A stretch of 64,000 nucleotides of DNA from a virus: the IMG/VR virus record IMGVR_UViG_3300035436_000036; one strand, written 5' to 3'. Both the position numbers and the translations under genes were made by a program. Within the stretch, counting starts at the first letter, position 1. Every line of letters begins with the position of its first letter. The notes beneath the pieces are model-generated. The model was not told where the DNA came from, did not search any database, and saw only the letters and a list, made by a program, of their open reading frames with translations. This document shows, piece by piece, positions 16,107-59,704 of this stretch.

Positions 16107-16664
16107 ATGACAGAAGAAGATCGTCATTACCTCTACAGAGACCTTGTAGATTCTAATGATCCAATTCTCAAGCAGAAGATGGGTCGGTTCGACTTCAACG
16201 ACCCTAGTGTCGACCCCCATGAGATAGCTCACATTCTTGCTCAGACCATGATCAAGAATGATGGGCTTGGACTCTCTGCCAACCAAGTTGGATTGCCTTA
16301 CAGGGTGTTCGTGGCAATGGGTAATCCTATCCTTTGCTGCTTCAACCCTGTCATCGTCGATGAATCAGAAGATGAGTTGATGATGGAAGAAGGATGCCTT
16401 TCGTATCCTAACTTGTTCGTCAAGATCAAGCGCCCACAGGTCATTCGTATTCGTTACACGAGACCAGATGGTGTTACAGTCACAGAACAGTATCAGGACC
16501 TCACTGCCAGAGTCATGCAGCATGAGATGGATCACCTCGATGGTATCTGCCACCTGAGTAGAGCCAACTCTATCCATTTGGAACAGGCGCGGACTAAAGC
16601 GAAAAAAGCGTTGAGAAATACAAAGAGTTCGATTATAATGCCTAATAGGCAACTGATCATATAA
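16107..16664 (+). CDS. def: Peptide deformylase
   Basis: All three PDF motifs: GLSANQVG, EGCLS, HEMDHL. Confidence 0.9.
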   Translation: MTEEDRHYLYRDLVDSNDPILKQKMGRFDFNDPSVDPHEIAHILAQTMIKNDGLGLSANQVGLPYRVFVAMGNPILCCFNPVIVDESEDELMMEEGCLSYPNLFVKIKRPQVIRIRYTRPDGVTVTEQYQDLTARVMQHEMDHLDGICHLSRANSIHLEQARTKAKKALRNTKSSIIMPNRQLII

Positions 16665-16715: not shown

Positions 16716-17276
16716 ATGTATATGAGCAGTAAATCACCTGAGTTTTTTAGTCTGTTTAGAATCACTAACTTAAAGACCGGACAAACATATGAGGCGCGTG
16801 GATACCGCAACACACTTGTGCTAGCAGGCTTAGCTGCATCTACCCCCGCAGCGCAGATGCGCAACAGCAAAAAATGGAAACTCGAAGAAGTTGCTCCGCC
16901 TGAGAAGTGGGACCAAGCAGCCTATAGGAGAGAGCTCTATAAAAAGACATCGGATCGTTATAGGCTATATGAGGCTAAAAAGCTAGCCCAAGATCCCCTG
17001 TATGAGAAGCGGAAACAGGCTAAACTTCGTGGTTGGAAAAACTATGATGGCTCCCAGTTCACTGCTGAACAACACGAGCGTATGTTAATTCAAAGCTGTG
17101 ATATTTGTGGTACAGAAAGTGATATTGTTGTTGACCATTGTCACGAAACAATGTATGTTCGGGGTAGCTTGTGTCGCAAGTGTAACCTAGCTCTCGGACA
17201 CGCTAACGATGATGTAGGAGTTTTAAAATCTATGATTAATTATATTGAAAGACACAGGAACAAGATATATGACTAA
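16716..17276 (+). CDS. HNH/Endonuclease VII-family nuclease (probable freestanding homing endonuclease)
   Basis: C-terminal motif VVDHCHETMYVRGSLCRKCNLALGH matches the EndoVII/HNH signature DHDH..G.VRGLLC..CN..LG. Confidence 0.65.
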   Translation: MYMSSKSPEFFSLFRITNLKTGQTYEARGYRNTLVLAGLAASTPAAQMRNSKKWKLEEVAPPEKWDQAAYRRELYKKTSDRYRLYEAKKLAQDPLYEKRKQAKLRGWKNYDGSQFTAEQHERMLIQSCDICGTESDIVVDHCHETMYVRGSLCRKCNLALGHANDDVGVLKSMINYIERHRNKIYD

Positions 17277-18228
17277 GAAGCATGCATTCAGCGAAATCTT
17301 CTATTCAATTCAAGGTGAGGGATTTTACTGCGGCGTGCCAACCGCGTGGTTGAGGTTCTTCCTCTGCAACCTGCAGTGCAATGGGTTTGGACAGAAGGAT
17401 CCGACAGATGAGTCGACGTACGTTCTTCCTTACAAGGATTTTGATCCTACGTCTGTTAATCGAATTGAGGATCTTCCGGTTTGGTCACATGGTTGTGACT
17501 CGTCTTACTCTTGGTCATCGAAGTTTAAGCATCTGCAGTATAAGAAGACTGCAGCAGAGATCTGTGATCAGATTCAAGCTGAACTCACGAACGAGTGGAA
17601 CCCTACAGGAACGTTCCATCACCCATTGAGCCATGTTGAACAGCATATGTGTTTCACTGGTGGTGAGCCTTTGATGAAACATGGCAAGCAAGCTGTTGTA
17701 GAGATCATCGATGAGTTCAAGATGCGCATGGGTGGCATGTTAGCTATTGACAAGCTCAAGGGCAGCAATCAACCAGAGTTCATCACATTCGAAACAAACG
17801 GCACACAGGAGCTGACAGATGACTTCGTTAATTATTTTGGCAATCGTGGTTGTTACGATGGCGAACTTTTCTTCTCGGTATCACCTAAGCTCTGGACAGT
17901 CGCCGGAGAGCGCCCAGAGAAAGCTATCCAGGCGGACGTTGTTAAGAAGTATGATTGGATCTCCAAAGGTCGAGGACAACTCAAGTTCGTCGTAGGTGAT
18001 AAGCAAGAGCAGTGGGATGAAGTAGATCATGTTGTGCAGCAGATGCGTAAAGCTGGTGTCACATACCCTGTATGGATCATGCCAGTAGGTGCCACAGAAG
18101 AAGCTCAGACTGGTGAGCTAGAAGGATATGCATCGGCTGGTAAGGTCGCTGAGATGGCGTTCAAACGAGGTTATAATGTGTCTGCCCGAGTGCATGTGTA
18201 TCTCTGGGGCAATTTGATTGGAGTATAA
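17269..18228 (+). CDS. queE: QueE-like radical-SAM 7-carboxy-7-deazaguanine synthase
   Basis: IFYSIQGEGFYCGVPTAWLRFFLCNLQC (QueE pattern F.SIQGEG..G.P..F.R..CNL.C with Cx11Cx3C cluster motif) and GGEPL motif; start moved to ATG with RBS AGGAACAAG. Confidence 0.6.
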   Translation: MTKKHAFSEIFYSIQGEGFYCGVPTAWLRFFLCNLQCNGFGQKDPTDESTYVLPYKDFDPTSVNRIEDLPVWSHGCDSSYSWSSKFKHLQYKKTAAEICDQIQAELTNEWNPTGTFHHPLSHVEQHMCFTGGEPLMKHGKQAVVEIIDEFKMRMGGMLAIDKLKGSNQPEFITFETNGTQELTDDFVNYFGNRGCYDGELFFSVSPKLWTVAGERPEKAIQADVVKKYDWISKGRGQLKFVVGDKQEQWDEVDHVVQQMRKAGVTYPVWIMPVGATEEAQTGELEGYASAGKVAEMAFKRGYNVSARVHVYLWGNLIGV

Positions 18229-18721
18229 TATGGTGAGTGAGATGCCTTCTGTTATAATTTATAGTCAAAACGACTTCCTTGAGGGGGTCGAATACATTGC
18301 TCGTCAGGTCGAGCGAGAAGAATACAAGCCTGACCTGATCGTTGGTATTGTAAGAGGTGGAAGCGTTCCTGCTGTATACCTTTCGCATCGTCTAAAGATT
18401 CCTGTCCAGATGGTTCACTGGAATACTCGTGATAGCTCGAAGTGGGGCAATGAGTCTAACTGTTGGATCCCCGAGCAGATCATAGACAACGATCTAAAGG
18501 TGCTGCTCGTCGATGATATTGTTGATGGTGGCGATACCATTAGAGAGCTTCTTGCAGACTGGCAGACATCAGTAGCTGGTAGCGGCAACTTACCTGTTGA
18601 CAATATTCGAATTTGCAGTATGATATATAACACAGCCCAGAGTGTTAGACCTCATTTCTACCACCAGACCATTGATCGTAATGAAGATCAGCGGTGGGTA
18701 ATCTTCCCTTGGGAAGCCTAA
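18218..18721 (+). CDS. Xanthine/guanine phosphoribosyltransferase-like (type I PRTase)
   Basis: IVGIVRGGSVPAVYLSHRLKIP and PRPP-binding VLLVDDIVDGGDT resemble E. coli Gpt. Confidence 0.6.
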   Translation: MEYNMVSEMPSVIIYSQNDFLEGVEYIARQVEREEYKPDLIVGIVRGGSVPAVYLSHRLKIPVQMVHWNTRDSSKWGNESNCWIPEQIIDNDLKVLLVDDIVDGGDTIRELLADWQTSVAGSGNLPVDNIRICSMIYNTAQSVRPHFYHQTIDRNEDQRWVIFPWEA

Positions 18722-18787
18722 GCGGCCTTTACAGCTCATCCCGCTATACAAACTCTGCTGCTCTATTAACCAATAGAGGAAAACACA

Positions 18788-19240
18788 ATGCCATATTTTA
18801 GTACAAAACATTACGGACATAACATCGGTCTGTCAGCTGTCTTCCGGCAGCCTAATGCCGATCACTCTCACTGCCATTTCCTGCATGGGTATAGTCTTGC
18901 ATTCACATTCAAGTTTGGATGTAATGAGCTTGACAACAAGAACTGGGCAGTCGACTTCGGTGGTCTGAAAGAGATCAAGGCGTGGCTCGAAGATAGCTTT
19001 GACCACAAGGTTGCAATCGATGTCAATGATCCTCACCTCGATAAGTTCAAAGAGCTAGCAGCTCATGACCTTGCACAGATCCGTATCTTCAATGGTGTCG
19101 GTGCAGAGAAGTTTGCCTTTCATGCATTCCAGTTTGCTGATAGGTTGATCAGAGAGAAGACAAATGGCCGCTGCTGGGTGCAGTCGGTTGAGTGTGCAGA
19201 GCACGGAGCCAATTCGGCTATCTATGAAAGAGAAGTATAA
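18788..19240 (+). CDS. queD: QueD / 6-carboxy-5,6,7,8-tetrahydropterin synthase (PTPS fold)
   Basis: HCHFLHGYS zinc motif, DFGGLKEIKAWLEDSFDHKVAID like QueD CGRLHGHS ... DFAELK ... LDHHYLN. Confidence 0.75.
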   Translation: MPYFSTKHYGHNIGLSAVFRQPNADHSHCHFLHGYSLAFTFKFGCNELDNKNWAVDFGGLKEIKAWLEDSFDHKVAIDVNDPHLDKFKELAAHDLAQIRIFNGVGAEKFAFHAFQFADRLIREKTNGRCWVQSVECAEHGANSAIYEREV

Positions 19241-19241
19241 T

Positions 19242-19418
19242 ATGAATCATCCCGATCCTAAAAAACACCAGTTGATTTCTTTTGTAAAGAGTAGTATAAG
19301 GATTGCTGCAAGCTGCGTTGCTTGCCTGATGATGAGCAATCCATCTGTTGCCGTATTCATTCTTGGATTGGGTTACGGTCTGGCAGAGATCGTTGGTGTT
19401 TATGAAGAACTAGTATAA
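19242..19418 (+). CDS. Small hydrophobic protein (58 aa)
   Basis: ATG right after queD stop; single predicted TM segment. Confidence 0.3.
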   Translation: MNHPDPKKHQLISFVKSSIRIAASCVACLMMSNPSVAVFILGLGYGLAEIVGVYEELV

Positions 19419-19427
19419 GGAATTGTA

Positions 19428-20387
19428 ATGAGAAAGCAAGGTAAAACAATCGGCTATAATGACTACTCGAGTAAGATGCCCGATCTTACGTTTGAGTATG
19501 ATGAGGACTTCTATACAGACGACCTACCTGATCCTCAGGTAGAGCCTGTTCTGGTTGGGTCACGTGTTCCAATCCGTAAGGTTGGTATCGCTCCTGTGGA
19601 TCTTCCGATTGTTGTCCAGCGTAGAGATGGTGGGACTCAGGTTCTCCAATCGGAAGCCTCTCTCTACTGTTCGCTCGATGATGTCAATGCAAAGGGTCTG
19701 AATCTCTCTCGTCTGTATCTTCTGATGCATGATAAGATTGAAAACCACCTGACCATTGATGGCATTAGTGGTGCTCTTAAGGAGCTAGCGGAGAAGCAGG
19801 GTTCGAAGAACGCATACTGCAAGCTGCGCTTTAAGTATCCTTGGCACCAGGACGCCTTGCGTTCTCGTCACGATCATACTCATGAGAAGCTTCGTGGACA
19901 CATTGCATACAAGACCGAGATCGAAGGTCAGTATCGTGATGGTGAAACTAAGTTCTTCCTTACGGTCGACTATGTGTATTCGTCAACATGCCCTTGCTCA
20001 TTCGAGCTAGCGCATGATGCTACAGAGAAGCGTAAGGCAGCTGCCAATGCTCACTCGCAGCGTTCGATCATGAAGGTCAAGGTTGAGTTCAAGCCAGAAG
20101 ACATCATCTGGATCGAAGACCTTGTAGAGCTCTGCCGCAAGCAGGTTCCTACCGAAGTTCAGATCGTTGTTAAGCGCCGTGACGAGCAAGCGTTTGCAGA
20201 GCTCAATGGTTCGAATCTCTTCTTCTCGGAAGATGTGTGTCGTCTGATGTACGAAGGTCTGGATGAGTGGTTTGCTGCTGGTCGTATCCAAGACTTCTCG
20301 ATTGCAGTGTCACATGAAGAGTCACTACATCCTTGGAATGCGATTGCTATCACCTCTAAGTTTGACGATCGCGCTCTTCTTTCTTAA
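19428..20387 (+). CDS. folE2: GTP cyclohydrolase FolE2/MptA-like (T-fold)
   Basis: N-terminal LPDPQ...IRKVGIAPVDLPIVV region and STCPCS metal-site-like motif recalled from the FolE2 family; placement with queD/queE. Confidence 0.5.
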   Translation: MRKQGKTIGYNDYSSKMPDLTFEYDEDFYTDDLPDPQVEPVLVGSRVPIRKVGIAPVDLPIVVQRRDGGTQVLQSEASLYCSLDDVNAKGLNLSRLYLLMHDKIENHLTIDGISGALKELAEKQGSKNAYCKLRFKYPWHQDALRSRHDHTHEKLRGHIAYKTEIEGQYRDGETKFFLTVDYVYSSTCPCSFELAHDATEKRKAAANAHSQRSIMKVKVEFKPEDIIWIEDLVELCRKQVPTEVQIVVKRRDEQAFAELNGSNLFFSEDVCRLMYEGLDEWFAAGRIQDFSIAVSHEESLHPWNAIAITSKFDDRALLS

Positions 20388-20395
20388 AATAAATG

Positions 20396-20430
20396 TTGCC
20401 TTTCATTCAGTTTTGTGGGATAGTGGTTCT
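20396..20430 (+). promoter_or_regulatory. Weak early-promoter-like element (TTGCCT ... GATAGT)
   Basis: AAATGTTGCCTTTCATTCAGTTTTGTGGGATAGTGG upstream of 20457 gene. Confidence 0.25.
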
Positions 20431-20456
20431 ACAGACTGAGTGGAAGGCTTTTTGTT

Positions 20457-20972
20457 ATGATCATTACAGAAGAGTTCAAGTTTAACTTTGAAATATCTTA
20501 CCTTGTATACTCAAGGGTATATGATGCGTGGGGTAGTTTATCAGACAGTGCGCGTAGTCGCTCACGTCGTCAAATTGAGGCCTCTGTCCGCGAAGGTGGT
20601 TTCAATGGTAACTCAACAGGTCTTATCAGCGAGAAGGCTTTCGAGACCATCCTTAAACAAAAGAAGGGTCTTCCGATCAGTAAGGACGAACGTCTTGCGT
20701 TGGAGCATCCGATTACTCACAAGAACATCGCGATGCATTGCGTTAACTCGCCAGTCAAACTATCATTTGAAGAGTTCTTCAATGTGTGGTTTGAGAACCT
20801 CGTTACCACATACACCACCAACGAAGAGAACCAAGGTCTTCGTAAATTCCAAAGCAACTACATATTCGGCGTTGACTGTTGGAAGAAAATGTACGAAGAT
20901 GCGGGCATCGTTCTAATGGAACGACCTAAACTGAACACCAAAGCTGCTAAACAGAAGTATGGGATTATCTAA
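20457..20972 (+). CDS. Hypothetical protein (171 aa)
   Basis: ORF; no motif. Confidence 0.5.
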   Translation: MIITEEFKFNFEISYLVYSRVYDAWGSLSDSARSRSRRQIEASVREGGFNGNSTGLISEKAFETILKQKKGLPISKDERLALEHPITHKNIAMHCVNSPVKLSFEEFFNVWFENLVTTYTTNEENQGLRKFQSNYIFGVDCWKKMYEDAGIVLMERPKLNTKAAKQKYGII

Positions 20973-21307
20973 TGGCATATGATAATGAAGTGAGAGAACG
21001 TGGTGTGTACGTTGTTCGTGACAATGTCTTTGTCATGTATATTGGATCATCGAAGTGCATGCTCTCGACCCTTGAGTACAATCACCGTAACTGGAAAGAG
21101 AAGTATGGCCTCGAGGGTCGTACTAACTTTCGTGAAGCGTTGATTGCTGATGGTCGTAAGTGGGAGTTTGAGTGGCTCGTTGAGCCTTTCATGTGCAACG
21201 CAGAAACGATTGAACATATAGAGGGCTGTCTAATTAGACAGTTGACTCCAGAACTGAATCTTGATAAGGATCCAGTAGCAAGCTCAAAAAGAAATGGGAG
21301 ATATTAA
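20972..21307 (+). CDS. GIY-YIG nuclease domain protein (111 aa, domain only)
   Basis: GVYVVRDNVFVMYIGSSKCM...R...EH...N pattern of GIY-YIG catalytic domain; TAATG overlap. Confidence 0.55.
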   Translation: MAYDNEVRERGVYVVRDNVFVMYIGSSKCMLSTLEYNHRNWKEKYGLEGRTNFREALIADGRKWEFEWLVEPFMCNAETIEHIEGCLIRQLTPELNLDKDPVASSKRNGRY

Positions 21308-21654
21308 TGAAGTACATTTGGGTTACCTTCCAGAAGGAAGGCATTCACCGTTATCCTGAGGCTCTGACTAATCCAGAGCTAGAGGATGTCAAGTTCCTTG
21401 GATATGATCATCGTCATATCTTCCACTTCCGTGTAGACCTGGAAGTCCGTCATGACAATCGTGACGTTGAGTTCATCCAGATGAAGCGCTGGCTCGAGTC
21501 GTTGTATCAGACTGAAACTCTCAAGCTAGATTATCGCTCATGTGAGATGATGTCAGACGATCTTAGCGTTTTGATTAAAGATAAATATCCTGGACGTAAA
21601 TTCAAGATCTCGGTCTCAGAAGATAATGAGAACGGAAGCTATGCAGAATACTAA
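21307..21654 (+). CDS. Hypothetical protein (115 aa)
   Basis: ORF; GYDHRHIFHFRV region, no firm family. Confidence 0.45.
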   Translation: MKYIWVTFQKEGIHRYPEALTNPELEDVKFLGYDHRHIFHFRVDLEVRHDNRDVEFIQMKRWLESLYQTETLKLDYRSCEMMSDDLSVLIKDKYPGRKFKISVSEDNENGSYAEY

Positions 21655-21667
21655 CGGGGATACAAAG

Positions 21668-21889
21668 ATGAAAACTTTCAGCGCATTCATGGCAGAATCA
21701 CAAGAGATTAACGAAGCCCATGATGTTGAACTTAAGCCACATGAGAACGGTACACACTACATCGTTCATAAGGTCCACCCTAGCTCTGGCATCGAATCTG
21801 ACCAGCTAAAGAAGGGTGAGATGATCTCGGATTCCCATGTTGACGATTTACACGACATGGGCTATAGTGTAAAGATCCACAAGAAGTAA
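21668..21889 (+). CDS. Hypothetical protein (73 aa)
   Basis: Start reassigned to ATG with RBS GGGGATACAAAG. Confidence 0.4.
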   Translation: MKTFSAFMAESQEINEAHDVELKPHENGTHYIVHKVHPSSGIESDQLKKGEMISDSHVDDLHDMGYSVKIHKK

Positions 21890-21921
21890 TTCACTTCTAC
21901 AATTTGTAATGAGGTTATATT

Positions 21922-22779
21922 ATGGTTGACTTTTGTCATATCGCACCCACGCGACATCTTTCTACGTTTGTAAACAATCAAACACATCACCTACTCCTTG
22001 CCCATCTCGTCGAAGAGGACAAGGAGTATACTAGGTTTTATCAGAGCGGTCGCAACCTAGCTGATACCTACATTCTCGATAACTCTGCCTTTGAGATGTA
22101 CAAGCAGGGTCGGGAGATGTATCCATCCGATAAGCTGATCGAGATGGGTAAGATGGTTGGCGCTGACTACATCGTGATGTCGGACTACCCTAACGAACCA
22201 GGCTCAAAGACCATCAAGGCTGCAGAGCAGCTTGCCCCTTTGTTCCGTAAAGCAGGCTTCGGAACGTTCTTCGTGCCTCAATCAGAGATTGGGGACATCG
22301 AAGACTACATCGCAACCTTTGCGTGGGCTGCTACTTCCCCTCTCGTCGACTACATTGGTGTATCGATCCTCGGTGTTCCCAATGCATATGGTGTAGAGAA
22401 GGACAACAAGCTGCAGCGCTTCATGAGTCGCTTTACGATGATGCACGAGCTCGAGCGCCGTGGGATCCTTCGTCTTGCTCGTCTGAACGGTAAGAAGATC
22501 CACTTCCTCGGAATGGTAGATGGGCCTAACGAGATTCGGCTCTGCGGTCGTTTTGATATCGATACGTGGGACTCTTCTGCAGCTATCTGGGCTGGTCTCA
22601 ACGACATCGCCTTCGACACCTCACCTACGGGATTGGTTGACGGTAAGTTCGAGAAAGAAGTTGACTTTAACTTCAATACGTTAGATAAGGTAAAGATCGA
22701 CTTGGCTAAGTCGAACATGAAGTACATTAATGATCTATGTGAGGAATATAGCAATGACAAGCCCGAAGCAGCCTGGTAA
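21922..22779 (+). CDS. Candidate DpdA-like DNA-guanine transglycosylase (TGT fold)
   Basis: ILDNSAFE (cf. TGT LTDSGGFQ) and IHFLGMVDGPNE (cf. TGT YLMGVGKPDD) at appropriate spacing; located in deazaguanine gene cluster; tentative. Confidence 0.35.
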   Translation: MVDFCHIAPTRHLSTFVNNQTHHLLLAHLVEEDKEYTRFYQSGRNLADTYILDNSAFEMYKQGREMYPSDKLIEMGKMVGADYIVMSDYPNEPGSKTIKAAEQLAPLFRKAGFGTFFVPQSEIGDIEDYIATFAWAATSPLVDYIGVSILGVPNAYGVEKDNKLQRFMSRFTMMHELERRGILRLARLNGKKIHFLGMVDGPNEIRLCGRFDIDTWDSSAAIWAGLNDIAFDTSPTGLVDGKFEKEVDFNFNTLDKVKIDLAKSNMKYINDLCEEYSNDKPEAAW

Positions 22780-23050
22780 CTCAATCGCTTATAAATACAA
22801 TGAAGGCGATATCCTGCAAGAGGTGCAGGCCTATATCGATTCAACCTACGGACAGCACTATGTTGGTAACGGCGAAATACAGACCGTAGACTTCTGGGAG
22901 TCACTTGGCTCCCTCGACACCACCGCCCGTGATACTGCAATCAAGTATCTGGCCCGCTTCGGAAAGAAGGGTGGTAGCAACCGCAAAGACCTTTTGAAAT
23001 CTATTCATTACATCGTGCTTATGATGTATGCAACGCGTGAGGATACATAA
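22754..23050 (+). CDS. DUF3310-like phage protein
   Basis: YGQHYVGNG ... AIKYLARFGKKGG ... DLLKSIHYIVLMM pattern. Confidence 0.4.
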   Translation: MTSPKQPGNSIAYKYNEGDILQEVQAYIDSTYGQHYVGNGEIQTVDFWESLGSLDTTARDTAIKYLARFGKKGGSNRKDLLKSIHYIVLMMYATREDT

Positions 23051-23646
23051 TGAAACATATCTCAGGGCCTAACTCTAGGTCATCTCTAACCAATGTACAA
23101 GATCAGGACGTTCAACCTAATGCCGTAGACCTTCGTCTCGGTAAGGTGTTCTTTATCCGTCCTGCAGCTTTCGTCATCGATGAAGAACAAAAGAAACATC
23201 GCGGCTCTGTTGAACTCACTCCTGATCCTGATGGCTACTATACGCTCAAAGAAGGTCATTATGAAGTTGTCATGGAGAACGTCATCGAAGTTGGAGAAGG
23301 CGAGGCTGGTTGGGTCATTACTCGCTCCACCCTTAACCGTAATGGCGTGTTTCTCACCTCTGGCCTTTATGATAGTGGTTATCATGGTGTTATGGCTGGG
23401 GTGATGCATGTCACTTGTGGTCCTATGAAGATCAAGCCAGGCACTCGCATCGGTCAGTATCTGTCGTTCGATTCTGAGGCTCTGTCGAAGTATGATGGCT
23501 CTTATGGCATCGGTAAAGAGCACGACAAGAAGTACGAAGACACTCAACAAGCTATCGAGGATATCCTCGAAGAGTTGAAGAATCCAGTTATCGAAATCGA
23601 AGAACCAAAACGCGGCCGAGGCCGCCCTAGAAAGGTAAGTGAATAA
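23050..23646 (+). CDS. dCTP deaminase / dUTPase-superfamily protein
   Basis: NAVDLRLG, GLYDSGYHG, TRIGQYLSF motifs of Dcd-type trimeric dUTPase fold. Confidence 0.6.
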   Translation: MKHISGPNSRSSLTNVQDQDVQPNAVDLRLGKVFFIRPAAFVIDEEQKKHRGSVELTPDPDGYYTLKEGHYEVVMENVIEVGEGEAGWVITRSTLNRNGVFLTSGLYDSGYHGVMAGVMHVTCGPMKIKPGTRIGQYLSFDSEALSKYDGSYGIGKEHDKKYEDTQQAIEDILEELKNPVIEIEEPKRGRGRPRKVSE

Positions 23647-24626
23647 TGGGTATGGAAATTAAGGTCCCAGTTGAAGAGTTGCGCAAGCGCAAGCTGTTTG
23701 TGGCTGCTCCAATGTATGGCGGTCAGTGTGCCGGTATGTTTACACGATCGATCGCAGACCTCTCTGCTCTGTGTACTCACTATGGCATTCAGGTAAGGTT
23801 CTACTTCCTGTTCAACGAGTCTCTGATCACTCGTGCTCGTAACTACTGCGCAGATGAGTTTATGCGTTCAGATGATACGCATCTGATGTTCATTGACTCT
23901 GACATCGGGTTCAACCCACATGACGTCATCGCTCTCCTTGCTCTGCAGGATCCAGATCATACCAAGGACGGCTACGACATCCTTGCTGGTCCATATCCTA
24001 AGAAGTGCATCTCATGGGAGAAGATTGCTCAGGCTGTTAACAAGGGCTTCGCTGACGAAGATCCTAACAACCTCGAGAACTTTGTGGGTGACTATGTGTT
24101 CAACCCTGCAGACGGTTCGGGTCAGATCCCTCTTGGCGAGCCTGTAGAGGTTCTCGAAGCTGGTACTGGCTTCATGATGATTCGTCGTAATACGTTCGAG
24201 AAGTTCCAAGAAGCATATCCACATCTCTTGTATAAGCCAGATCACGTTCGCACCGAACACTTCGATGGCACACGTGAGATCATGGCTTTCTTCGATGCTC
24301 TTATCGACGACAAGACTCAGAATCTGATTCCGGAAGTATCGGCCTTCTTTGATAAGAACCCGAACCCTACCAAGGAACAGATGGTCGAGTTCCTCCAAGA
24401 TAAGCGCAGCGGTCTTACCAAGGACCAATACTCAAATCGCTATCTGTCAGAAGACTACATGTTCTGTCAGTGGGTTCGTAATGCTGGACTCAAGGTATGG
24501 CTCTGCCCATGGATGAAGTTGCAGCACGTTGGTTCGTATGTGTTTGGTGGATCGCTTGTCGACCTTGCACAGATCGGGGCATCAGCAACCGCTGATGTTG
24601 ACAAACTGAAAAAGAAAAAGAAGTAA
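23646..24626 (+). CDS. GT-A fold (family 2-like) glycosyltransferase
   Basis: KLFVAAPMYGG ... ARNYCADEF ... FIDSDIGF (DxD) arrangement typical of GT-A nucleotide-sugar transferases. Confidence 0.4.
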   Translation: MGMEIKVPVEELRKRKLFVAAPMYGGQCAGMFTRSIADLSALCTHYGIQVRFYFLFNESLITRARNYCADEFMRSDDTHLMFIDSDIGFNPHDVIALLALQDPDHTKDGYDILAGPYPKKCISWEKIAQAVNKGFADEDPNNLENFVGDYVFNPADGSGQIPLGEPVEVLEAGTGFMMIRRNTFEKFQEAYPHLLYKPDHVRTEHFDGTREIMAFFDALIDDKTQNLIPEVSAFFDKNPNPTKEQMVEFLQDKRSGLTKDQYSNRYLSEDYMFCQWVRNAGLKVWLCPWMKLQHVGSYVFGGSLVDLAQIGASATADVDKLKKKKK

Positions 24627-25340: not shown

Positions 25341-25880
25341 ATGATATACTTAATCACCAACAAAGTAAACGGTAAACGTTACATAGGTAAGACTTCTCAA
25401 ACTATCGAAAAGAGATGGTATCAGCACTGTAAGAACGCAGAGTATGGTCACAACACCTATCTATACCGAGCCATTAGAAAATATGGTAAGGATAGCTTCG
25501 ACGTTGCTAAGCTATGTGATGGATTGAATGAGGAAGAGATCTTAATGATTGAAACACATTCACCTGAATATAACATGACTTTGGGTGGCGATGGTGGCGA
25601 CACTTCTACAAGTCCTAACTACAAGTTGGCTTTGTTAAACAGAGATATGTCGGGAGAGAATAATCCCAACTATGGAAAGAAAGGTCCATCCAGCCCTAAC
25701 TATGGTAAACGGAGAACCGAAGACCAGAAGCAAAATCATCGCGATGGCTACAAGGGGAAGCGTGTACCGGTTAGAGTAGATGGTGTTGATTATGAATCTG
25801 TCTCAAGAGCAGCTAAACTCTTGGGACGCAGTGAAAGATATGTGAGGCTACATGACGAACTTAATGAGTGGAAATACTAA
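25341..25880 (+). mobile_element. Freestanding GIY-YIG homing endonuclease (I-TevI/Seg-like) inserted between gp45 and gp44
   Basis: MIYLITNKVNGKRYIGKT GIY-YIG motif, R and E residues, NUMOD-like GENNPNYGKKGPSSPNYGKR repeats. Confidence 0.8.
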
Positions 25881-27939: not shown

Positions 27940-28016
27940 GCGCCGTTAGCTCATCTGGATAGAGCGCGAAACTTCTAATTTTGAGGCAGCAGGTTCGAGT
28001 CCTGCACGGCGCACCA
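27940..28016 (+). tRNA. tRNA-Arg (anticodon TCT)
   Basis: Cloverleaf folded by eye; T-loop TTCGAGT, CCA encoded. Confidence 0.7.
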
Positions 28017-28021
28017 TATAC

Positions 28022-28096
28022 ACTCCCGTAGCTCAACGGTAGAGCTGACCGCTCATAACGGTTAGGTTAGGGGTTCGAATCCCTTCGGGAGTACCA
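28022..28096 (+). tRNA. tRNA-Met/Ile2 (anticodon CAT)
   Basis: Cloverleaf, T-loop TTCGAAT, CCA encoded. Confidence 0.7.
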
Positions 28097-28097
28097 T

Positions 28098-28175
28098 GTC
28101 ACGGTGGCAGAGTGGTCCAATGCACAGGTCTGCAAAACCTGAAAGCCGCGGGTTCGAATCCCGCCCGTGACTCCA
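28098..28175 (+). tRNA. tRNA-Cys (anticodon GCA)
   Basis: Cloverleaf, T-loop TTCGAAT, CCA encoded. Confidence 0.6.
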
Positions 28176-29836: not shown

Positions 29837-30044
29837 GTTTATTGCTCAAGAGATCGAACAATTAGTCACCACCTATATGACAGAGATTGGTCTTCAGACT
29901 TATTTCCGTAAGCCGCATGAAATGTTGCAAACTGACCAACGGTGGAAGATTCAAAAGATTGAAGCTCTTTGTCGGGAACTTCAAAAAAAGGTTCAGTCGC
30001 TCAGTGCAGACCTTATAAAGGAATTGGATAAAAAAGATGCCTAA
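29826..30044 (+). CDS. Hypothetical protein (72 aa)
   Basis: ORF. Confidence 0.4.
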   Translation: MKSKFIAQEIEQLVTTYMTEIGLQTYFRKPHEMLQTDQRWKIQKIEALCRELQKKVQSLSADLIKELDKKDA

Positions 30045-30519
30045 GTGTATTATTCTCGTTGGTGTTCCTGCATCTGGTAAGTCTACTTGGCACCGCAACA
30101 AGTTTGGTGAGTATCCGCCGGCTGTGGCGTCAACAGATAAAATAATCGAAGCAGTAGCTAGCAGCTACGGTATGACATATGATGAAGGATTCAAGGGACT
30201 GATTCAGTTTGCCGAACAGATAATGTGGAGGCAAATTACTACATGTCTGATGCGTGGATCTGACTTTATTATTGATCGCACTAACCTGTCGGTGAAGTCT
30301 CGTAAGAAGTTTATCGATAAGCTCAAGCTGCATCGCTACGAGATCGAGTGTGTAGTCTTCCCGATGCCTGGTAGTGACGAGCTGTCATCAGATGAGTGGA
30401 ATCGTCGCCTGAACTCGCGTCGAGGTAAGACTATCCCAGGCTACATCCTCTCGTCGATGATTGAGCATTATGAGCCACCTACGCTTGCAGAAGGTTTTTC
30501 GAAGATCACGATCATTTAG
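30037..30519 (+). CDS. Polynucleotide 5'-kinase (T4 Pnk kinase domain only)
   Basis: [21 protein letters not shown] vs T4 Pnk [29 protein letters not shown] vs ISDTNLN; ends with RRG like T4 SKRG; no fused phosphatase domain. Confidence 0.75.
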   Translation: [160 protein letters not shown]

Positions 30520-32447: not shown

Positions 32448-32523
32448 GGACTCGTAGCTCAATTGGGAGAGCACCGCACTGTCACTGCGGAGGTAGTGGG
32501 ATCGAAACCCATCGAGTTCGCCA
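32448..32523 (+). tRNA. tRNA-Asp (GTC)
   Basis: Cloverleaf by eye. Confidence 0.7.
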
Positions 32524-32529
32524 GTTTGT

Positions 32530-32604
32530 GTCGGTGTGATGTTAATGGTAGCATGACGGTCTCCAAAACCGTTCGTCAAGGTTCGAATCCTTGCACCGAT
32601 GCCA
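32530..32604 (+). tRNA. tRNA-Trp (CCA)
   Basis: Cloverleaf by eye. Confidence 0.65.
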
Positions 32605-32629
32605 GACTTGTTCTTTCTCATTGTTGTTC

Positions 32630-32705
32630 GCGTCTGTAGCTCAGTTGGCAGAGCACTCCCCTGATAAGGGAGAGGTCGCAGGGTCAGGACCTGCCAGACG
32701 CACCA
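32630..32705 (+). tRNA. tRNA-Ile (GAT)
   Basis: Cloverleaf by eye; atypical T-loop GTCAGGA. Confidence 0.6.
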
Positions 32706-32761
32706 TTATGGGGTTGCTACCTAATAAGCACGCGAGGGGCCACGGTTAGCTCCTCAACATT

Positions 32762-32851
32762 GGAAGCGTGTCAGAGTGGTCGATTGATCTGGTCTTGAAA
32801 ACCAGCGTAGGCGCGAGTCTACCGTGGGTTCGAATCCCACCGCTTCCTCCA
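32762..32851 (+). tRNA. tRNA-Ser (TGA), type II
   Basis: Long variable arm, T-loop TTCGAAT. Confidence 0.7.
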
Positions 32852-32852
32852 T

Positions 32853-32927
32853 GCGGACGTAGCTCAGTGGTAGAGCTTCTCGTTGCCAACGAGAAGGTCG
32901 TGGGTTCGAATCCCATCGTCCGCTCCA
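32853..32927 (+). tRNA. tRNA-Gly (GCC)
   Basis: Cloverleaf by eye. Confidence 0.7.
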
Positions 32928-32929
32928 AT

Positions 32930-33004
32930 GGCCCGGTCGTCTAATGGCTAGGACACCGCTCTTTCACAGCGGAGAAGAGGGATCGAAACCCTTTCGGGCT
33001 ACCA
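32930..33004 (+). tRNA. tRNA-Glu (TTC)
   Basis: Cloverleaf by eye. Confidence 0.65.
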
Positions 33005-33010
33005 GATTTA

Positions 33011-33098
33011 GGAACGTGGGCAGGACGGTAATGCAACGCACTGCTAATGCGTACAACCTGTAATGGGTTGACAGGGTTCGACTCCCTGACGTTCCGCC
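33011..33098 (+). tRNA. tRNA-Ser (GCT), type II
   Basis: Long variable arm, T-loop TTCGACT. Confidence 0.7.
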
Positions 33099-33269
33099 AA
33101 GTTTATGGAGTCGTGAACACGGTAATGGTCGATCGCAGCGTACAGGGGTGTTCGGGGGCGATTGGCAACTCCGCCAAGATGAGGGAAACGCTAGGGCAAT
33201 GTCAGACGGTGCCTGCGTAGCGGGTGTCGTGAGGTGCTGGGTAACCGGCGGGGTCTGACACGAGTTTAT
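33099..33269 (+). ncRNA. Unassigned structured RNA segment inside tRNA operon (possible stable small RNA like T4 species 1/2 RNAs, or degenerate tRNAs)
   Basis: ~170 nt between tRNA-Ser and tRNA-His; GTCAGAC...GTCTGAC inverted repeat; both halves start with AGTTTATGG like tRNA leaders; no convincing cloverleaf. Confidence 0.3.
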
Positions 33270-33345
33270 GGTGGTCGAGGTGTTAATGGATACATGCTGG
33301 ATTGTGAATCCGGAGTTGCGGGCTCGATACCCGTCGATCACCCCA
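33270..33345 (+). tRNA. tRNA-His (GTG) with G-1
   Basis: Extra 5' G paired to discriminator C; T-loop CTCGATA. Confidence 0.65.
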
Positions 33346-33346
33346 T

Positions 33347-33422
33347 GGGGATATAGTCCAACGGCAGAGACAGGGCACTTAAAATGCCTCCAGCGTGAGT
33401 TCGAATCTCACTATCCCTACCA
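33347..33422 (+). tRNA. tRNA-like, anticodon TAA, with short (type I) variable arm
   Basis: Good acceptor/T arms (GTGAG TTCGAAT CTCAC), anticodon loop CTTAAAA; UAA normally belongs to type II tRNA-Leu. Confidence 0.5.
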
Positions 33423-33531
33423 GAATTTAGTAGACAGTGGGGCCTTCAGAAATGATTGCTACTAATAGCTCACCTTAATGGTCGGTACACCACGGTAAGG
33501 AGCAACCCACCAAACTTTTTTAAAATAACTG

Positions 33532-33570
33532 TTGCCTTTTTCGAAAATATGTCCTATAAGGATATATAAG
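33532..33570 (+). promoter_or_regulatory. Early promoter cassette copy (TTGCCT variant)
   Basis: ACTGTTGCCTTTTTCGAAAATATGTCCTATAAGGATATATAAG. Confidence 0.5.
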
Positions 33571-33591
33571 ATGAAGAAAAAGGAATTGGTT

Positions 33592-33795
33592 ATGGAAGTT
33601 TTTGTTTTGATGGGTGCGATGGATCACGATGCACATTACGTTCTTGGTGTTTATGCTTCTGAACAAGAAGCTGTAGATGCCTTGGGTGTTTACCTTCGTG
33701 ACCTTGATGAATCTTGGCATGATCGTTATTATGTTGATCGCCGTGTGCTCGGTGCACATGCGGAATACGATTCCGATCCTTTTCGACATCTGTAA
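33592..33795 (+). CDS. Hypothetical protein (67 aa) between tRNA clusters
   Basis: ATG after AAAAAGGAATTGGTT leader (same pattern as 30583 gene). Confidence 0.4.
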   Translation: MEVFVLMGAMDHDAHYVLGVYASEQEAVDALGVYLRDLDESWHDRYYVDRRVLGAHAEYDSDPFRHL

Positions 33796-33802
33796 GTTTA
33801 AT

Positions 33803-33878
33803 GGACGATTAGCTCAGTCGGTAGAGCGCGGGACTCTTAATCCTTAGGTCATAGGTTCGAATCCTATATCGTCTACCA
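33803..33878 (+). tRNA. tRNA-Lys (CTT)
   Basis: Cloverleaf by eye. Confidence 0.65.
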
Positions 33879-34093
33879 AGTTCTATGTTGGGTATCACAT
33901 AGGTGTGTCCTGAGGGAGTCATGACCCAAGGGAGAATGGAGAAAATCTCATATAGGATGCATAATGCATAACCATCTTATGATTATGAGAGGATGCGATA
34001 ATCCCCGCCCGACGCCAAATTATCCGTACCATTTTATAGGAGGTTGTATATGTCACTGCGGGAAGCAAGAAGCTAGGTAAAAATTTTAAAAAG

Positions 34094-34357
34094 ATGATTA
34101 CTCTGTATGAGTATTTCGGTAAAGAGTGTGGTGGTCTAGATTGGAGCGATAGTGCTCTCTATGATCTATACGTATTCGAGTCTACTGGTAAAGGTAGCAT
34201 AAAGCCGAATAACGGATATGCATATGGCAAACACACTATAGATATAACAATCTCTATGTGGAAAGAGGACTTAGATAAGACCCTCTGGCTACATGAATTA
34301 TATCAAGATCCTAACCTACCAGATTGGTGGTTGGATAAAGTTTTTAAGGGTCGGTAA
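34094..34357 (+). CDS. Hypothetical protein (87 aa)
   Basis: ORF between tRNAs; W-rich C-terminus. Confidence 0.4.
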   Translation: MITLYEYFGKECGGLDWSDSALYDLYVFESTGKGSIKPNNGYAYGKHTIDITISMWKEDLDKTLWLHELYQDPNLPDWWLDKVFKGR

Positions 34358-34432
34358 AGCCGGTGGCTCCGGCAGTCAGACTGTAAATCTGATCCGTTCG
34401 CGGGGGAGGATCGATACCTCACTGACCCACCA
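34348..34432 (+). tRNA. tRNA-Tyr (GTA), type II
   Basis: Anticodon stem TCAGA/TCTGA, loop CTGTAAA, long variable arm; 5' end overlaps stop of upstream ORF. Confidence 0.6.
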
Positions 34433-34440
34433 AGTTTTAA

Positions 34441-34516
34441 TGCCCTTTGGTGTAATTGGCAACACGTCTGATTTTGATTCAGAAGAGTCCAGGTTCGAGC
34501 CCTGGGAGGGCATCCA
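34441..34516 (+). tRNA. tRNA-Gln (TTG)
   Basis: Cloverleaf by eye. Confidence 0.7.
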
Positions 34517-34525
34517 AAAATAAAT

Positions 34526-34558
34526 GTTGACTTATATCTAAAAATGAGATATATAATA
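34526..34558 (+). promoter_or_regulatory. Promoter internal to tRNA cluster 3 (TTGACT ... TATATAAT)
   Basis: Upstream of tRNA-Pro. Confidence 0.5.
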
Positions 34559-34567
34559 TACTAGTAA

Positions 34568-34643
34568 CGGGAAGTAGCTCAGGTGGGAGAGCGCGTGGTT
34601 TGGGACCACGAGGTCGCAGGTTCGAGCCCTGTCTTCCCGACCA
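34568..34643 (+). tRNA. tRNA-Pro (TGG)
   Basis: Cloverleaf by eye. Confidence 0.7.
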
Positions 34644-34647
34644 TTTT

Positions 34648-34723
<76 letters not shown>

Positions 34724-34730
34724 GAATAAA

Positions 34731-34804
34731 GCGGGCTTGGCGTAGAGATAACGTACCTGGCTTCCACCCAGGGGTCAAGGGTTTGATTCCCTTAGTCCGC
34801 ACCA
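34731..34804 (+). tRNA. tRNA-Gly (TCC)
   Basis: Cloverleaf by eye. Confidence 0.7.
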
Positions 34805-34810
34805 GAATAC

Positions 34811-34885
34811 GGCACAGTAGCTCAGTGGTAGAGCGACGGTCTCATACGCCGTCAGCCGGTGGTTCGAATCCATCCTGTGTCACCA
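34811..34885 (+). tRNA. tRNA-Met/Ile2 (CAT), second copy
   Basis: Cloverleaf by eye. Confidence 0.7.
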
Positions 34886-35033
34886 TTTAGGAATGTGAAT
34901 ATGAGAAGCGAGTCTGCAGAATGTGTGATGTATGTACCCGACACTCCTTTAAACAGGGCTGCGTTTACAGACGAAACGGTTTTGGCAGAGATATATAAAG
35001 TTTCGAATATTAAAATTGTGTTTAAAGATAATG

Positions 35034-35108
35034 GGGGATTAGCTCAGTTGGGAGAGCGATTGCTTTGCAAGCAATAGGTCAACGGTTCGATCCCGTTATC
35101 CTCCACCA
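35034..35108 (+). tRNA. tRNA-Ala (TGC)
   Basis: Cloverleaf by eye; G3-U70 present (GGGGGAT...ATCCTCC). Confidence 0.7.
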
Positions 35109-35397
35109 AGTTTTGTAGCGCCTAAGGCATAGCCCGAAGGATAACCAAAGGTTCACCGTATTGGGGGCTCGCTACAAAAAAATATAGACCACCTCGGCTG
35201 AACCCGTGAAGTGATAAAGACATTGTTGCAACATTGTTTTTATCTGGGAAGATTGCAACGTCCGGAAGTAAGCAATCAAGGCACACTGTAGGTGGTCACT
35301 CACATTGACTCCGACCTCTGGTTTTAAGTCCCGACCTGAAATGACAGGCGGTAACATATGTGTCCTAGGAAACGCATTTGTTTGGGAGTTTTTATTT

Positions 35398-35473
35398 GCC
35401 TTTGTAGCTCAGTTGGTAGAGCAGTGGATTGAAGATCCACGTGTCGGGGGTTCGACTCCCTCCAAAGGCACCA
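35398..35473 (+). tRNA. tRNA-Phe (GAA)
   Basis: Cloverleaf by eye. Confidence 0.7.
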
Positions 35474-35592
35474 CAAGTTTGGGACTAAGCGGTGTGAATA
35501 GGGAACCCGCTGAATATGGACTGCTAGTAAAACTGTTAAAACTCACCTATGAGAAGCAAGGCATAAGATCCCAAAACATTATGCTCCAATGG

Positions 35593-35675
35593 TGGAATGG
35601 TAGACACGCTAGTCTTAGGAACTAGTGCCTAGTGCGTGGGGGTTCGAGTCCCTCTTGGAGTACCAAGTTTAATGC
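35593..35675 (+). tRNA. tRNA-Leu (TAG), type II
   Basis: Long variable arm, discriminator A. Confidence 0.7.
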
Positions 35676-35683
35676 CGGATTAG

Positions 35684-35758
35684 CTCAGTGGTAGAGCGCC
35701 TCGTTTACACCGAGGATGTCGGGAGTTCGACCCTCTCATCCGGTACCACGCCCTCGTA
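35684..35758 (+). tRNA. tRNA-Val (TAC)
   Basis: Cloverleaf by eye. Confidence 0.7.
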
Positions 35759-35759
35759 G

Positions 35760-35836
35760 CTCAACTGGATAGAGCTCTTGATTACGAATCAAAAGGTTGC
35801 AGGCTCGAATCCTGCCGAGGGCACCAATTAACTGTT
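35760..35836 (+). tRNA. tRNA-Arg (ACG)
   Basis: Cloverleaf by eye. Confidence 0.65.
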
Positions 35837-35844
35837 GACATTAA

Positions 35845-35873
35845 CAGCTATAAGTACTATAAAGAATTATGAA
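35845..35873 (+). promoter_or_regulatory. Promoter (TTGACA N17 TATAAA) upstream of tRNA-Asn
   Basis: sigma70-like spacing. Confidence 0.5.
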
Positions 35874-35879
35874 GTTTAT

Positions 35880-35954
35880 TCCCCAGTAGCTCAGTGGTAG
35901 AGCAGGTGACTGTTAATCACCTGGCCGGTGGTTCGAACCCATCCTGGGGAGCCA
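35880..35954 (+). tRNA. tRNA-Asn (GTT)
   Basis: Cloverleaf by eye. Confidence 0.7.
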
Positions 35955-59463: not shown

Positions 59464-59703
59464 ATGACTAAGATTTCTATTGATTTGGATTATGAAGTTA
59501 TCGATGAGATTGTTCAGGGTCAGCTAGTACGTAGTTGGGAAGCTCTCAAGGATGACCTTGGAGCTGGTCGTAACATCTTCGTCTGGGGCGTCTTCCTCGC
59601 GGATGATGTAGAGATCCAGAAACATCTAGATGCATTTGAGCTTTTGATCAAATGGTATTCAACTCCTGATCAGCTTCGTGAGCTGGGTCTCAAGGTCGAC
59701 TAA
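59464..59703 (+). CDS. Hypothetical protein (79 aa)
   Basis: ORF. Confidence 0.4.
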   Translation: MTKISIDLDYEVIDEIVQGQLVRSWEALKDDLGAGRNIFVWGVFLADDVEIQKHLDAFELLIKWYSTPDQLRELGLKVD

Positions 59704-59704
59704 A

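Follow-up and report, generated by a model that had tools for sequence, protein, structure and literature searches.

IMG/VR virus record IMGVR_UViG_3300035436_000036 is represented here by a 64-kb stretch of DNA (64,000 nucleotides; hereafter the window) from a T4-like phage, as judged by its genes for gp46 and gp47, the sliding clamp, the clamp loader, RegA, DNA polymerase, and capsid proteins, along with 24 tRNAs. Set amid the replication genes is a cluster whose inferred products resemble enzymes for making a 7-deazaguanine base and placing it in DNA (Table 1). The modification genes all lie on the plus strand and are bounded by the gene for peptide deformylase (def; 16107-16664) and gene 45. 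A preliminary description of the window had proposed a 7-deazaguanine DNA-modification cluster, and this proposal holds: the open reading frames (ORFs) that it named (QueE-like, QueD, FolE2-like, a purine phosphoribosyltransferase [PRT], a DpdA candidate, and their neighbors) are all present, on the plus strand, at the positions in Table 1, their enzyme families can be assigned, and the gene set is of the type found in Cellulophaga phage phiST. Two ORFs had been overlooked, those for DpdL and for a 98-residue DUF3310 protein. The genes are tightly packed: the PRT start lies 2 bases past the QueE stop codon, the 3' end of the DpdA3 gene overlaps the DUF3310 gene, and ATGA junctions mark the boundaries between DUF3310 and the dCTP deaminase (DCD)-fold gene and between the latter and a glycosyltransferase (GT)-like gene. 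The phage is known from its genes alone, and what we document is the family membership of its enzymes, the lack of a detectable QueC, and the conservation of synteny. A megablast search with 8 kb of window DNA gave no match among 50,697 phage records, indicating that there is no close cultured phage at the DNA level.

Table 1. Features of the cluster and of the genes inserted in it, in order of position in the window.
Feature	Position	Strand	Remarks
Endonuclease VII/HNH-type ORF	16716..17276	+	PF02945, E 3e-15; follows the peptide deformylase gene, precedes QueE
QueE-like radical-SAM CDG synthase	17269..18228	+	319 aa from the ATG at 17269
Type I purine (6-oxopurine-like) PRT	18230..18721	+	PF00156, E 2e-14
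QueD (CPH4 synthase), phage type	18788..19240	+	PF01242 (PTPS), E 1.6e-13; phrog_2389, E 3e-37
FolE2 (GTP cyclohydrolase IB)	19428..20387	+	PF02649, E 2e-59; NF010200, 226 bits (cut-off 215, equivalog)
171-aa ORF, function unknown	20457..20972	+	no Pfam, NCBIfam or PHROG match
111-aa ORF, GIY-YIG-like by motif only	20972..21307	+	no Pfam match
DpdL, QueD paralogue, putative CDG decarboxylase	21307..21654	+	115 aa; phrog_17812, E 4e-33; motif and tblastn
DpdA3-type TGT-fold transglycosylase (candidate)	21922..22779	+	285 aa; minimal TIM barrel without Zn subdomain
DUF3310 protein, gp1.7-like	22754..23050	+	98 aa; PF11753, E 4.3e-8, 33.5 bits (cut-off 24)
DCD-fold dUTPase-like dNTP pyrophosphatase	23050..23646	+	PF22769, E 1.4e-14; NF002598 (dUTPase), E 2e-24; top PDB match dUTPase 9w59
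GT-A-like protein (phrog_1574)	23646..24626	+	326 aa; DSD motif; translationally coupled to the DCD gene

We assembled a set of related loci, consisting of 80 IMG/VR contigs (L010-L089, 713 kb in total) whose DpdA3 is 59-95% identical to that of the window, and scanned them with tblastn. The gene order recurs in these 80 contigs, and the juxtaposition of the genes is therefore not due to chance. The common order is gp46-def-QueE-(PRT)-QueD-FolE2 or FolE-DpdL-DpdA3-DUF3310-DCD-GT-like-gp45. Rhizobium phage RHph_I1_18 shows the same synteny in its complete genome (170,978 bp), which served as a stand-in for the whole of a genome of probably 150-250 kb of which the window represents 64 kb. Relatives of the window's DpdA3-type protein are numerous: metagenomes contain over 2,000 homologues, and over 500 IMG/VR contigs encode one.

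Three of the genes account, by homology, for the synthesis of 7-carboxy-7-deazaguanine (CDG): FolE2 converts GTP to dihydroneopterin triphosphate (H2NTP), QueD converts H2NTP to 6-carboxytetrahydropterin (CPH4), and QueE converts CPH4 to CDG. The inferred QueE matches phrog_2076 (E 1e-50) and, across 95% of its length, shares about 42% identity with its counterpart in vibriophages KVP40 and nt-1; the NCBIfam QueE models align to its N-terminal 30 residues only. (The mechanical ORF begins at a TTG codon at 17245; relatives are called at 318-319 aa.) QueD is 43% identical to its phiST counterpart and carries a CxxxHGY variant of the motif that is common, in alignment, to the QueD proteins of the window, phiST, Acidovorax phage ACP17, and RHph. 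FolE2 is the Zn-independent isozyme of GTP cyclohydrolase I. In the related loci the slot for this enzyme is filled by FolE2 in 16 cases and by classical FolE in 39, with no change of place (L005 versus L031, for example), a non-orthologous displacement which argues that the step is required; scarcity of Zn may be a driver of the alternation. Between QueD and FolE2 is a small ORF (about 19242-19418; some 52-58 aa) with a hydrophobic segment, and relatives keep a small ORF at the same position (genes of 52-53 aa in L005 and L007).

The next step would be taken by DpdL. In phiST, DpdL is proposed to be a CDG decarboxylase that gives 7-deazaguanine (DG), and it is defined by the motif LxxxHRHxF in place of CxxxHGH; it is distributed among phages that have DpdA, FolE, QueD, and QueE and lack QueC (Cui, Hutinet et al., PMC10516641). 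The window's protein carries the sequence FLGYDHRHIF, which fits the motif and aligns with it in the DpdL proteins of phiST and ACP17, and tblastn showed 51% identity to DpdL of ACP17 (E 2e-35) and 31% to CGPG_00067 of phiST (E 2e-7). DpdL is kept in essentially all of the related loci. A route from CDG to DG by way of DpdL would make QueC unnecessary. The DNA of the Cellulophaga phages phiST, phi13:1, and phi19:2 is reported to have about 100% of its G replaced by 2'-deoxy-7-deazaguanine (dDG), with dCDG, the corresponding form of CDG, absent (PMC10516641). By analogy, the presence of DpdL in the cluster leads us to expect dDG, and not dCDG, as the base in the DNA of this phage.

DG would then be installed in exchange for guanine by the protein previously noted as a DpdA candidate, which we file as a DpdA3 on the strength of its modeled fold and its homology to phiST. 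It aligns from end to end with CGPG_00065 of phiST, the founding DpdA3 (26% identity over 265 aa, pairwise E 2e-9), and the two proteins show reciprocal weak matches to the same Bacillus phage proteins. An AlphaFold model, based on an alignment of 88 of the 476 relatives that were found among 1.84 billion cluster representatives, is a (beta/alpha)8 barrel (pLDDT 96) that is bare save for one C-terminal helix. The best structural match to the model is DpdA 7ui4, and the same structure was the top match, weakly (E 0.025), of the sequence profile, in an alignment that spans the HxLG and xDS motifs. Residue D53 (in LDNSAFE, compare DSGGFQ in tRNA-guanine transglycosylase [TGT]) is invariant in DpdA3 and D217 (in WDSS, compare SIDS in DpdA) nearly so; given the resemblance of the motifs, these residues may be the counterparts of the catalytic Asp102 and Asp280 of TGT. 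The barrel model, the match to 7ui4, and the homology to CGPG_00065 bear out the original assignment to the TGT fold. The Zn subdomain (CxCxxC...H) was not found in the protein, which has only three Cys residues, none in such a motif, and searches for known families returned no Pfam or NCBIfam family and, from PHROG, only a family of unknown function (E 5e-5). The isoelectric point, tried as a proxy for DNA binding, was discarded: it does not discriminate, DpdA2, which acts on DNA, being acidic as well.

As the preliminary description had stated, no PP-loop QueC is visible in the window: the SGGxDS motif does not occur in any of its six frames, and the best tblastn match to QueC of KVP40 has an E value of 0.46. 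Nor did QueC turn up farther afield. Neither QueC, QueF, ArcS, nor DpdA2 was found in the window or the 80 related loci in the tblastn scan, and in the complete RHph_I1_18 genome neither the annotation, nor tblastn (best E 0.6), nor the motif revealed a QueC; QueF and ArcS were likewise not found there. It had been proposed on this ground that the pathway ends at CDG, with dCDG or another less common 7-deazaguanine base in the DNA, unless a host QueC carries the pathway on to preQ0. The lack of QueC in the window fits this proposal, as does the low-efficiency insertion of CDG by a DpdA2 in a queC mutant (PMC10516641, Table 2), but DpdL, with its diagnostic motif, is encoded inside the cluster and in essentially all relatives, and in the only phages with the same gene set whose DNA has been measured, the base is dDG, with dCDG absent (PMC10516641). 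We therefore consider an end at CDG, or completion by host QueC, to be improbable; the part of the proposal that allowed for another base survives.

A different use for the genes would be to make a precursor of queuosine or archaeosine, destined for tRNA, in a phage that encodes 24 tRNAs, among them tRNA-Asp(GTC), tRNA-His(GTG), and tRNA-Asn(GTT), which have GUN anticodons. Since preQ0 cannot be made without QueC, since DpdL and DpdA3 are linked to DNA modification in phiST (PMC10516641), and since the cluster is placed amid replication genes, we regard this possibility as highly implausible. The tRNA genes of the window form two arrays (27940-28175 and 32448-35954), and Asp, His, and Asn tRNAs with GUN anticodons are queuosine targets in bacteria.

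We conclude, with a probability that we put at roughly three in four, that the cluster is a phiST-type module for the replacement of guanine by dDG and that its carriers are uncultured, marine T4-like phages that form an abundant clade. Here the base is assigned by analogy with phiST, the chemistry of DpdL is that proposed in the literature, and the exchange reaction of DpdA3 is predicted from fold and family. Several observations weigh on the other side. The decarboxylation attributed to DpdL has been proposed and never demonstrated, heterologous expression having failed (PMC10516641). The window is only 64 kb of its genome, and QueC or the QueC paralogue QueC* may lie elsewhere. An hhalign comparison of the DpdA3 profile with a two-sequence DpdA2 alignment was marginal (probability 50%, E 1.6e-4), and the Pfam TGT model PF01702 did not match DpdA3 at E <= 0.01. 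A TGT-family profile search, which had been suggested as a check on the DpdA candidate, thus failed literally. The defining DpdA3 member was likewise detected only by HHpred (PMC10516641), however, so the failure of PF01702 is uninformative for this subfamily, and the fold and the homology to CGPG_00065 support membership.

The cluster also contains a purine PRT, whose best relatives of solved structure are the Pyrococcus purine PRT 1vdm (E 4.5e-13) and Sulfolobus GpT-1/2. Its phage homologues are confined to phiST, phi13:1, phi19:2, cyanophage BUCT-ZZ01, and Brevundimonas phage MaInes, in which the gene is next to FolE. BUCT-ZZ01 has the order QueE-PRT-QueD-FolE as in the window, plus DpdL, and PRT domains are found in the clusters of L097 and L101 as well, so that a PRT recurs in the QueC-less DpdL clusters of phiST, BUCT-ZZ01, L097, and L101. 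The simplest role for the enzyme would be salvage: one guanine is freed in each exchange and one GTP is spent on each DG, and the loop would be closed by a guanine PRT that returned the released base to GMP and GTP, the pathway's own precursor. Alternatively, it could activate DG itself. No paper among those available to us combines 7-deazaguanine, DpdA, and phosphoribosyltransferase.

An extension of the latter idea would make the PRT the source of the modified nucleotide, by forming a DG or CDG ribonucleotide that passes through ribonucleotide reductase to the polymerase, with DpdA3 in a secondary role such as replacing residual G. The location of its gene 2 bases past QueE, its recurrence in DpdL clusters regardless of the type of DpdA, and its resemblance to archaeal 6-oxopurine PRTs are in keeping with such a route. 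DpdA3 is kept, however, where the PRT is not: of the 16 related loci whose upstream sequence extends to 5 kb or more, 6 lack the PRT, and no homologue of the window type was found in RHph_I1_18, in the fetched stretches of Vibrio phage D479 and Aeromonas phage Ahp1, or in any record of those phages (tblastn, E <= 1e-3). Guanine salvage, moreover, accounts for the PRT without a new specificity. A PRT-driven route is, in our estimation, unlikely.

Downstream of DpdA3 are the DUF3310 and DCD-fold genes, which occupy this position in 69 of the 69 related loci with enough downstream sequence. DUF3310 is, moreover, fused to the C-terminus of DpdA3 in RHph_I1_18. The DUF3310 protein of the window resembles T7 gp1.7 (which matches PF11753 with an E value of 4.5e-23), and the motifs HY, KYxxRxGKK, and KDLxK are common to the two. 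To our knowledge gp1.7 is the only characterized enzyme with this domain, and on the basis of this resemblance we consider the window's protein to be a gp1.7-like, putative nucleotide kinase. The substrates that gp1.7 phosphorylates are dGMP and dTMP (PMC7693777, PMC9339283).

The DCD-fold protein is dUTPase-like by sequence and, we conclude, a dNTP pyrophosphatase and not a deaminase. The preliminary description had suggested that a dCTP-deaminase-fold enzyme could add a nucleotide-level modification; in an alignment with Mycobacterium tuberculosis Dcd (2qxx), the catalytic Glu of the deaminase, in TLE(L), is replaced by Gly (GVMAGVMHV), and we reject a dCTP deaminase on this ground. The best matches are to dUTPases. 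Among the 50,697 phage records, homologues (E < 1e-5) were found in exactly four phages, RHph_I1_18, Vibrio phages D479 and Bakedbeans, and Ahp1, which are also the four phages in which the window's DpdA3 has strong matches. We note that the C-terminus of the protein (PKRGRGRPRKV, residues ~185-196) is a canonical AT-hook-like motif and that RHph_I1_18, D479, and L107 have homologues of 164-171 aa, some 30 aa shorter than the window's protein. It would be unusual for a dNTP pyrophosphatase to be tethered to DNA. A separate dCMP deaminase is encoded at 45322-45744, beside a cytidylyltransferase-like protein (44912-45744 for the pair).

Examination of DpdA3 genes in other phages and in divergent metagenomic contexts (DpdA3 25-38% identical to the window's) revealed that other kinases take the place of DUF3310. 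In D479 and Ahp1 a dNMP kinase of the T4 gp1 type (DNMK, PF21448; E 5.7e-9 and 1.7e-17) lies between DpdA3 and DCD, as it does in L107 (DpdA3-DNMK-DCD), and in Bakedbeans a weaker DNMK-like gene is directly 3' of DpdA3. In phiST the gene immediately 5' of DpdA3 encodes an AAA_18 P-loop protein (CGPG_00066, E 9.4e-7), and CGPG_00068 is a MazG-type pyrophosphatase. An AAA_18 gene is likewise located two genes 5' of DpdA3 in L108, and the order in L101 is QueE-PRT-DCD-DpdL-AAA_18-like-DpdA3-PolB. L109 encodes a 190-aa DUF3310 protein 5 kb from DpdA3, L110 has the order DUF1599-DpdA3-DCD, and in Bacillus phage BSTP12 a weak P-loop/dNK-like ORF is directly upstream. Thus, as judged by sequence, DpdA3 adjoins a kinase of one of three unrelated families (DUF3310, DNMK, or AAA_18) across unrelated phages, which is a new observation, and usually has near it a dNTP pyrophosphatase, which is either DCD-fold or MazG-type, two families that are unrelated. 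No kinase or pyrophosphatase was found in the DpdL clusters that have a DpdA2-like enzyme (ACP17 and BUCT-ZZ01) or in the DpdA2 cluster of KVP40. The two accessory genes therefore track DpdA3, and not DpdL, by way of non-homologous replacement. A separate observation concerns the ORF directly 5' of DpdA3 in L110 (5623-5859, on record) and L097 (7684-8004, E 0.02), which matches DUF1599 ("nucleotide modification associated domain 1"); its helix pattern is loosely like that of DUF3310 in alignment, and remote homology is possible.

The grouping of a base-modifying enzyme with a pyrophosphatase and a dNMP kinase is the signature of pre-replicative pathways such as that for hydroxymethylcytosine (hmC) in T4. 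We therefore put forward, at close to even odds, a pre-replicative route in which the base is swapped on deoxynucleotides that are then polymerized, and which would cover DpdA3 systems including phiST. In this scheme a dedicated dNTP pyrophosphatase (DCD-fold or MazG-type) would convert dGTP to dGMP; the minimal TGT barrel of DpdA3 would swap guanine for 7-deazaguanine on the mononucleotide; a dedicated kinase (DUF3310/gp1.7-like, T4 gp1-like DNMK, or AAA_18 P-loop) would re-phosphorylate the product for the polymerase; and the purine PRT would return the freed guanine to GTP. The scheme would probably extend to the Campylobacter and Flavobacterium phages that are 100% modified. Three published results fit it: G is replaced at 100% in DpdA3 phages, DpdA3 did not modify DNA in Escherichia coli, and free dADG nucleoside is present in cells infected with Campylobacter phage CP220 (PMC10516641).

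The published view, to which we give odds somewhat short of even, is instead strictly post-replicative: DpdA3 swaps G for DG in double-stranded phage DNA, and the kinase-like, dUTPase-like, and PRT genes are housekeeping genes that are merely clustered with it, as genes for nucleotide metabolism often are in T4-like phages. The TGT and DpdA enzymes that have been characterized all use polymer-bound guanine, with DpdA 7ui4 the best structural match to the window's protein, and we know of no TGT-fold enzyme that uses a mononucleotide. The accessory genes, too, admit of a plainer reading. The DCD-fold protein, whose best matches are dUTPases, may be a plain dUTPase. The DUF3310 protein (98-106 aa) aligns to residues ~120-190 of gp1.7 only, the C-terminal third, and lacks the N-terminal ~120 residues. 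In two contexts, L097 and L099, no kinase or NTPase was found within the fetched flanks of DpdA3. The DUF3310 domain is also present in lactococcal SaV proteins, whose function is unknown (PMC8306868).

Mere clustering of housekeeping genes is, on the other hand, hard to square with the fusion of DUF3310 to DpdA3 in RHph_I1_18, with the recruitment of three unrelated kinase families to the side of DpdA3, with the restriction of the DCD-fold subfamily to the four cultured phages that have this type of DpdA3, and with the lack of a kinase or NTPase where DpdL is clustered with a DpdA2-like enzyme. The inactivity of DpdA3 on DNA in E. coli, the free dADG nucleoside, and the complete replacement of G count against a strictly post-replicative exchange as well.

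The remaining genes of the region appear to be peripheral to the pathway. The preliminary description had suggested that a GT-A glycosyltransferase could add a sugar. The fold finds weak support, in that the top Foldseek matches to the model are all GT-A glycosyltransferases (pLDDT 66, TM 0.25-0.37), although the protein has no Pfam or PDB sequence match. A sugar-adding role in the pathway is rejected because of the protein's phyletic spread: homologues are found in phages that lack this DpdA3, namely Caulobacter phage Cr30, Sinorhizobium phiM12-like phages, Stenotrophomonas phage DLP_6, cyanophages, and a pelagiphage. The gene is thus a core gene of the lineage and not specific to the pathway. 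The endonuclease VII/HNH-type ORF is missing in L007 and L005, where the deformylase gene directly precedes QueE; it is a mobile insertion and has no part in the pathway. The 111-aa GIY-YIG-like ORF, which is missing in the near-identical contig L007 and present in some relatives only, is probably the remnant of a homing endonuclease, a presence/absence insertion outside the pathway. The 171-aa ORF is variable in relatives (other small ORFs stand in its place in L005) and is probably not a core part. A third endonuclease-type ORF, of the GIY-YIG type, lies at 25341-25880 and was called by Pfam in L008; the three break an otherwise conserved order and look like homing-endonuclease insertions within or beside the cluster.

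Elsewhere in the window a FecR-domain protein (39962-41053) is followed by a 685-aa fusion of a CHASE2 sensor to an adenylate/guanylate cyclase (41034-43091; PF05226, E 1e-39; PF00211, E 2e-18), a membrane signaling cyclase in a T4-like genome of lytic type. Also encoded are an AAA_33 P-loop kinase (30037-30519), a peroxiredoxin (36382-36972), and a denV-like pyrimidine-dimer glycosylase (59678-60256).

If the pre-replicative route is correct, DpdA3 would be the first case of a TGT fold at work on a mononucleotide, the complete replacement of G would be explained, and rewriting of the nucleotide pool would offer a reason for the failure of DpdA3 in heterologous DNA-modification assays. Whichever substrate it uses, the dDG pathway that was described in 2023 from a few cultured phages would extend to a very abundant, uncultured clade of marine T4-like phages. 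Genomes in which G is fully replaced by its 7-deaza counterpart may then be common in the ocean, with a bearing on evasion of restriction and CRISPR and on the enzymatic handling of environmental viral DNA. The main value of the association across lineages is that it makes the choice between pre- and post-replicative exchange directly testable.

Finally, we compare the cluster with systems that are already known. The bacterial Dpd system (DpdA/DpdB/DpdC; 7ui4) differs: its DpdA is about 150 aa longer than the window's enzyme and 14% identical to it, and there is no DpdB ATPase or DpdC in the window. The Vibrio phages KVP40, nt-1, and VH7D (dPreQ1, dG+, and mdPreQ1) are T4-like and have an orthologous QueE (~42% identity) but, unlike the window, encode QueC, QueF or ArcS, and DpdA2. 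Less than 0.1% of their G is modified, and on plasmid DNA the modification has been demonstrated to be post-replicative (PMC10516641). CP220 shares with the window its assignment to the DpdA3 subfamily and, with dADG at 100% of G, has complete replacement (PMC10516641); it differs in having QueC*, which makes the amide, and its DpdA3 was not found by the window-type DpdA3 hidden Markov model in the first 50 kb of its genome. CPT_0006 and CPT_0007 of CP220 (L104, 5407-6410) are a P-loop NTPase-like ORF followed by a dUTPase, a few kilobases from a radical-SAM QueE-like gene.

ACP17 and BUCT-ZZ01, like the window, have a FolE step, QueD, QueE, and DpdL (the window's DpdL being 51% identical to that of ACP17). 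Unlike the window, they have a DpdA2-like enzyme of 420-450 aa with GT1-like neighbors, and no DUF3310, DNMK, or DCD genes. The proteins beside the DpdA2-like enzyme are weak GT-B (Glycos_transf_1) matches: gp124 of ACP17 (L004, 6972-8000) and two in BUCT-ZZ01 (L105, 5690-6856 and 8504-9847).

The hmC pathway of T4 consists of the dCTPase gp56, the dCMP hydroxymethylase gp42, and the dNMP kinase gp1, and the Z-genome pathway of S-2L of MazZ, DatZ, and PurZ. The likeness to these systems lies in their logic, in which a dNTP pyrophosphatase and a dedicated dNMP kinase accompany a base modifier that acts on the dNMP, and it extends to the gp1 family itself (PF21448), which supplies the kinase beside DpdA3 in D479, Ahp1, and L107. 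Unlike them, the modifier here would be a TGT-fold base exchanger.

The closest counterpart is the dDG system of phiST, which has homologous QueD, QueE, DpdL, and DpdA3, lacks QueC, carries a homologue of the purine PRT in its genome, and has, as the window does, a dNTP pyrophosphatase and a kinase-like gene in its cluster. The two differ in the enzymes that fill particular slots, with FolE, the MazG-type CGPG_00068, and the AAA_18 protein CGPG_00066 in phiST versus FolE2, the DCD-fold protein, and DUF3310 in the window. The window differs further in that its PRT lies inside the cluster, its DpdA3 is only 26% identical to that of phiST, and its phage is a marine T4-like myovirus. In its core the cluster thus belongs to the phiST-type dDG system of 2023, in a variant form marked by FolE2, the DCD-fold protein, DUF3310, and a PRT within the cluster.

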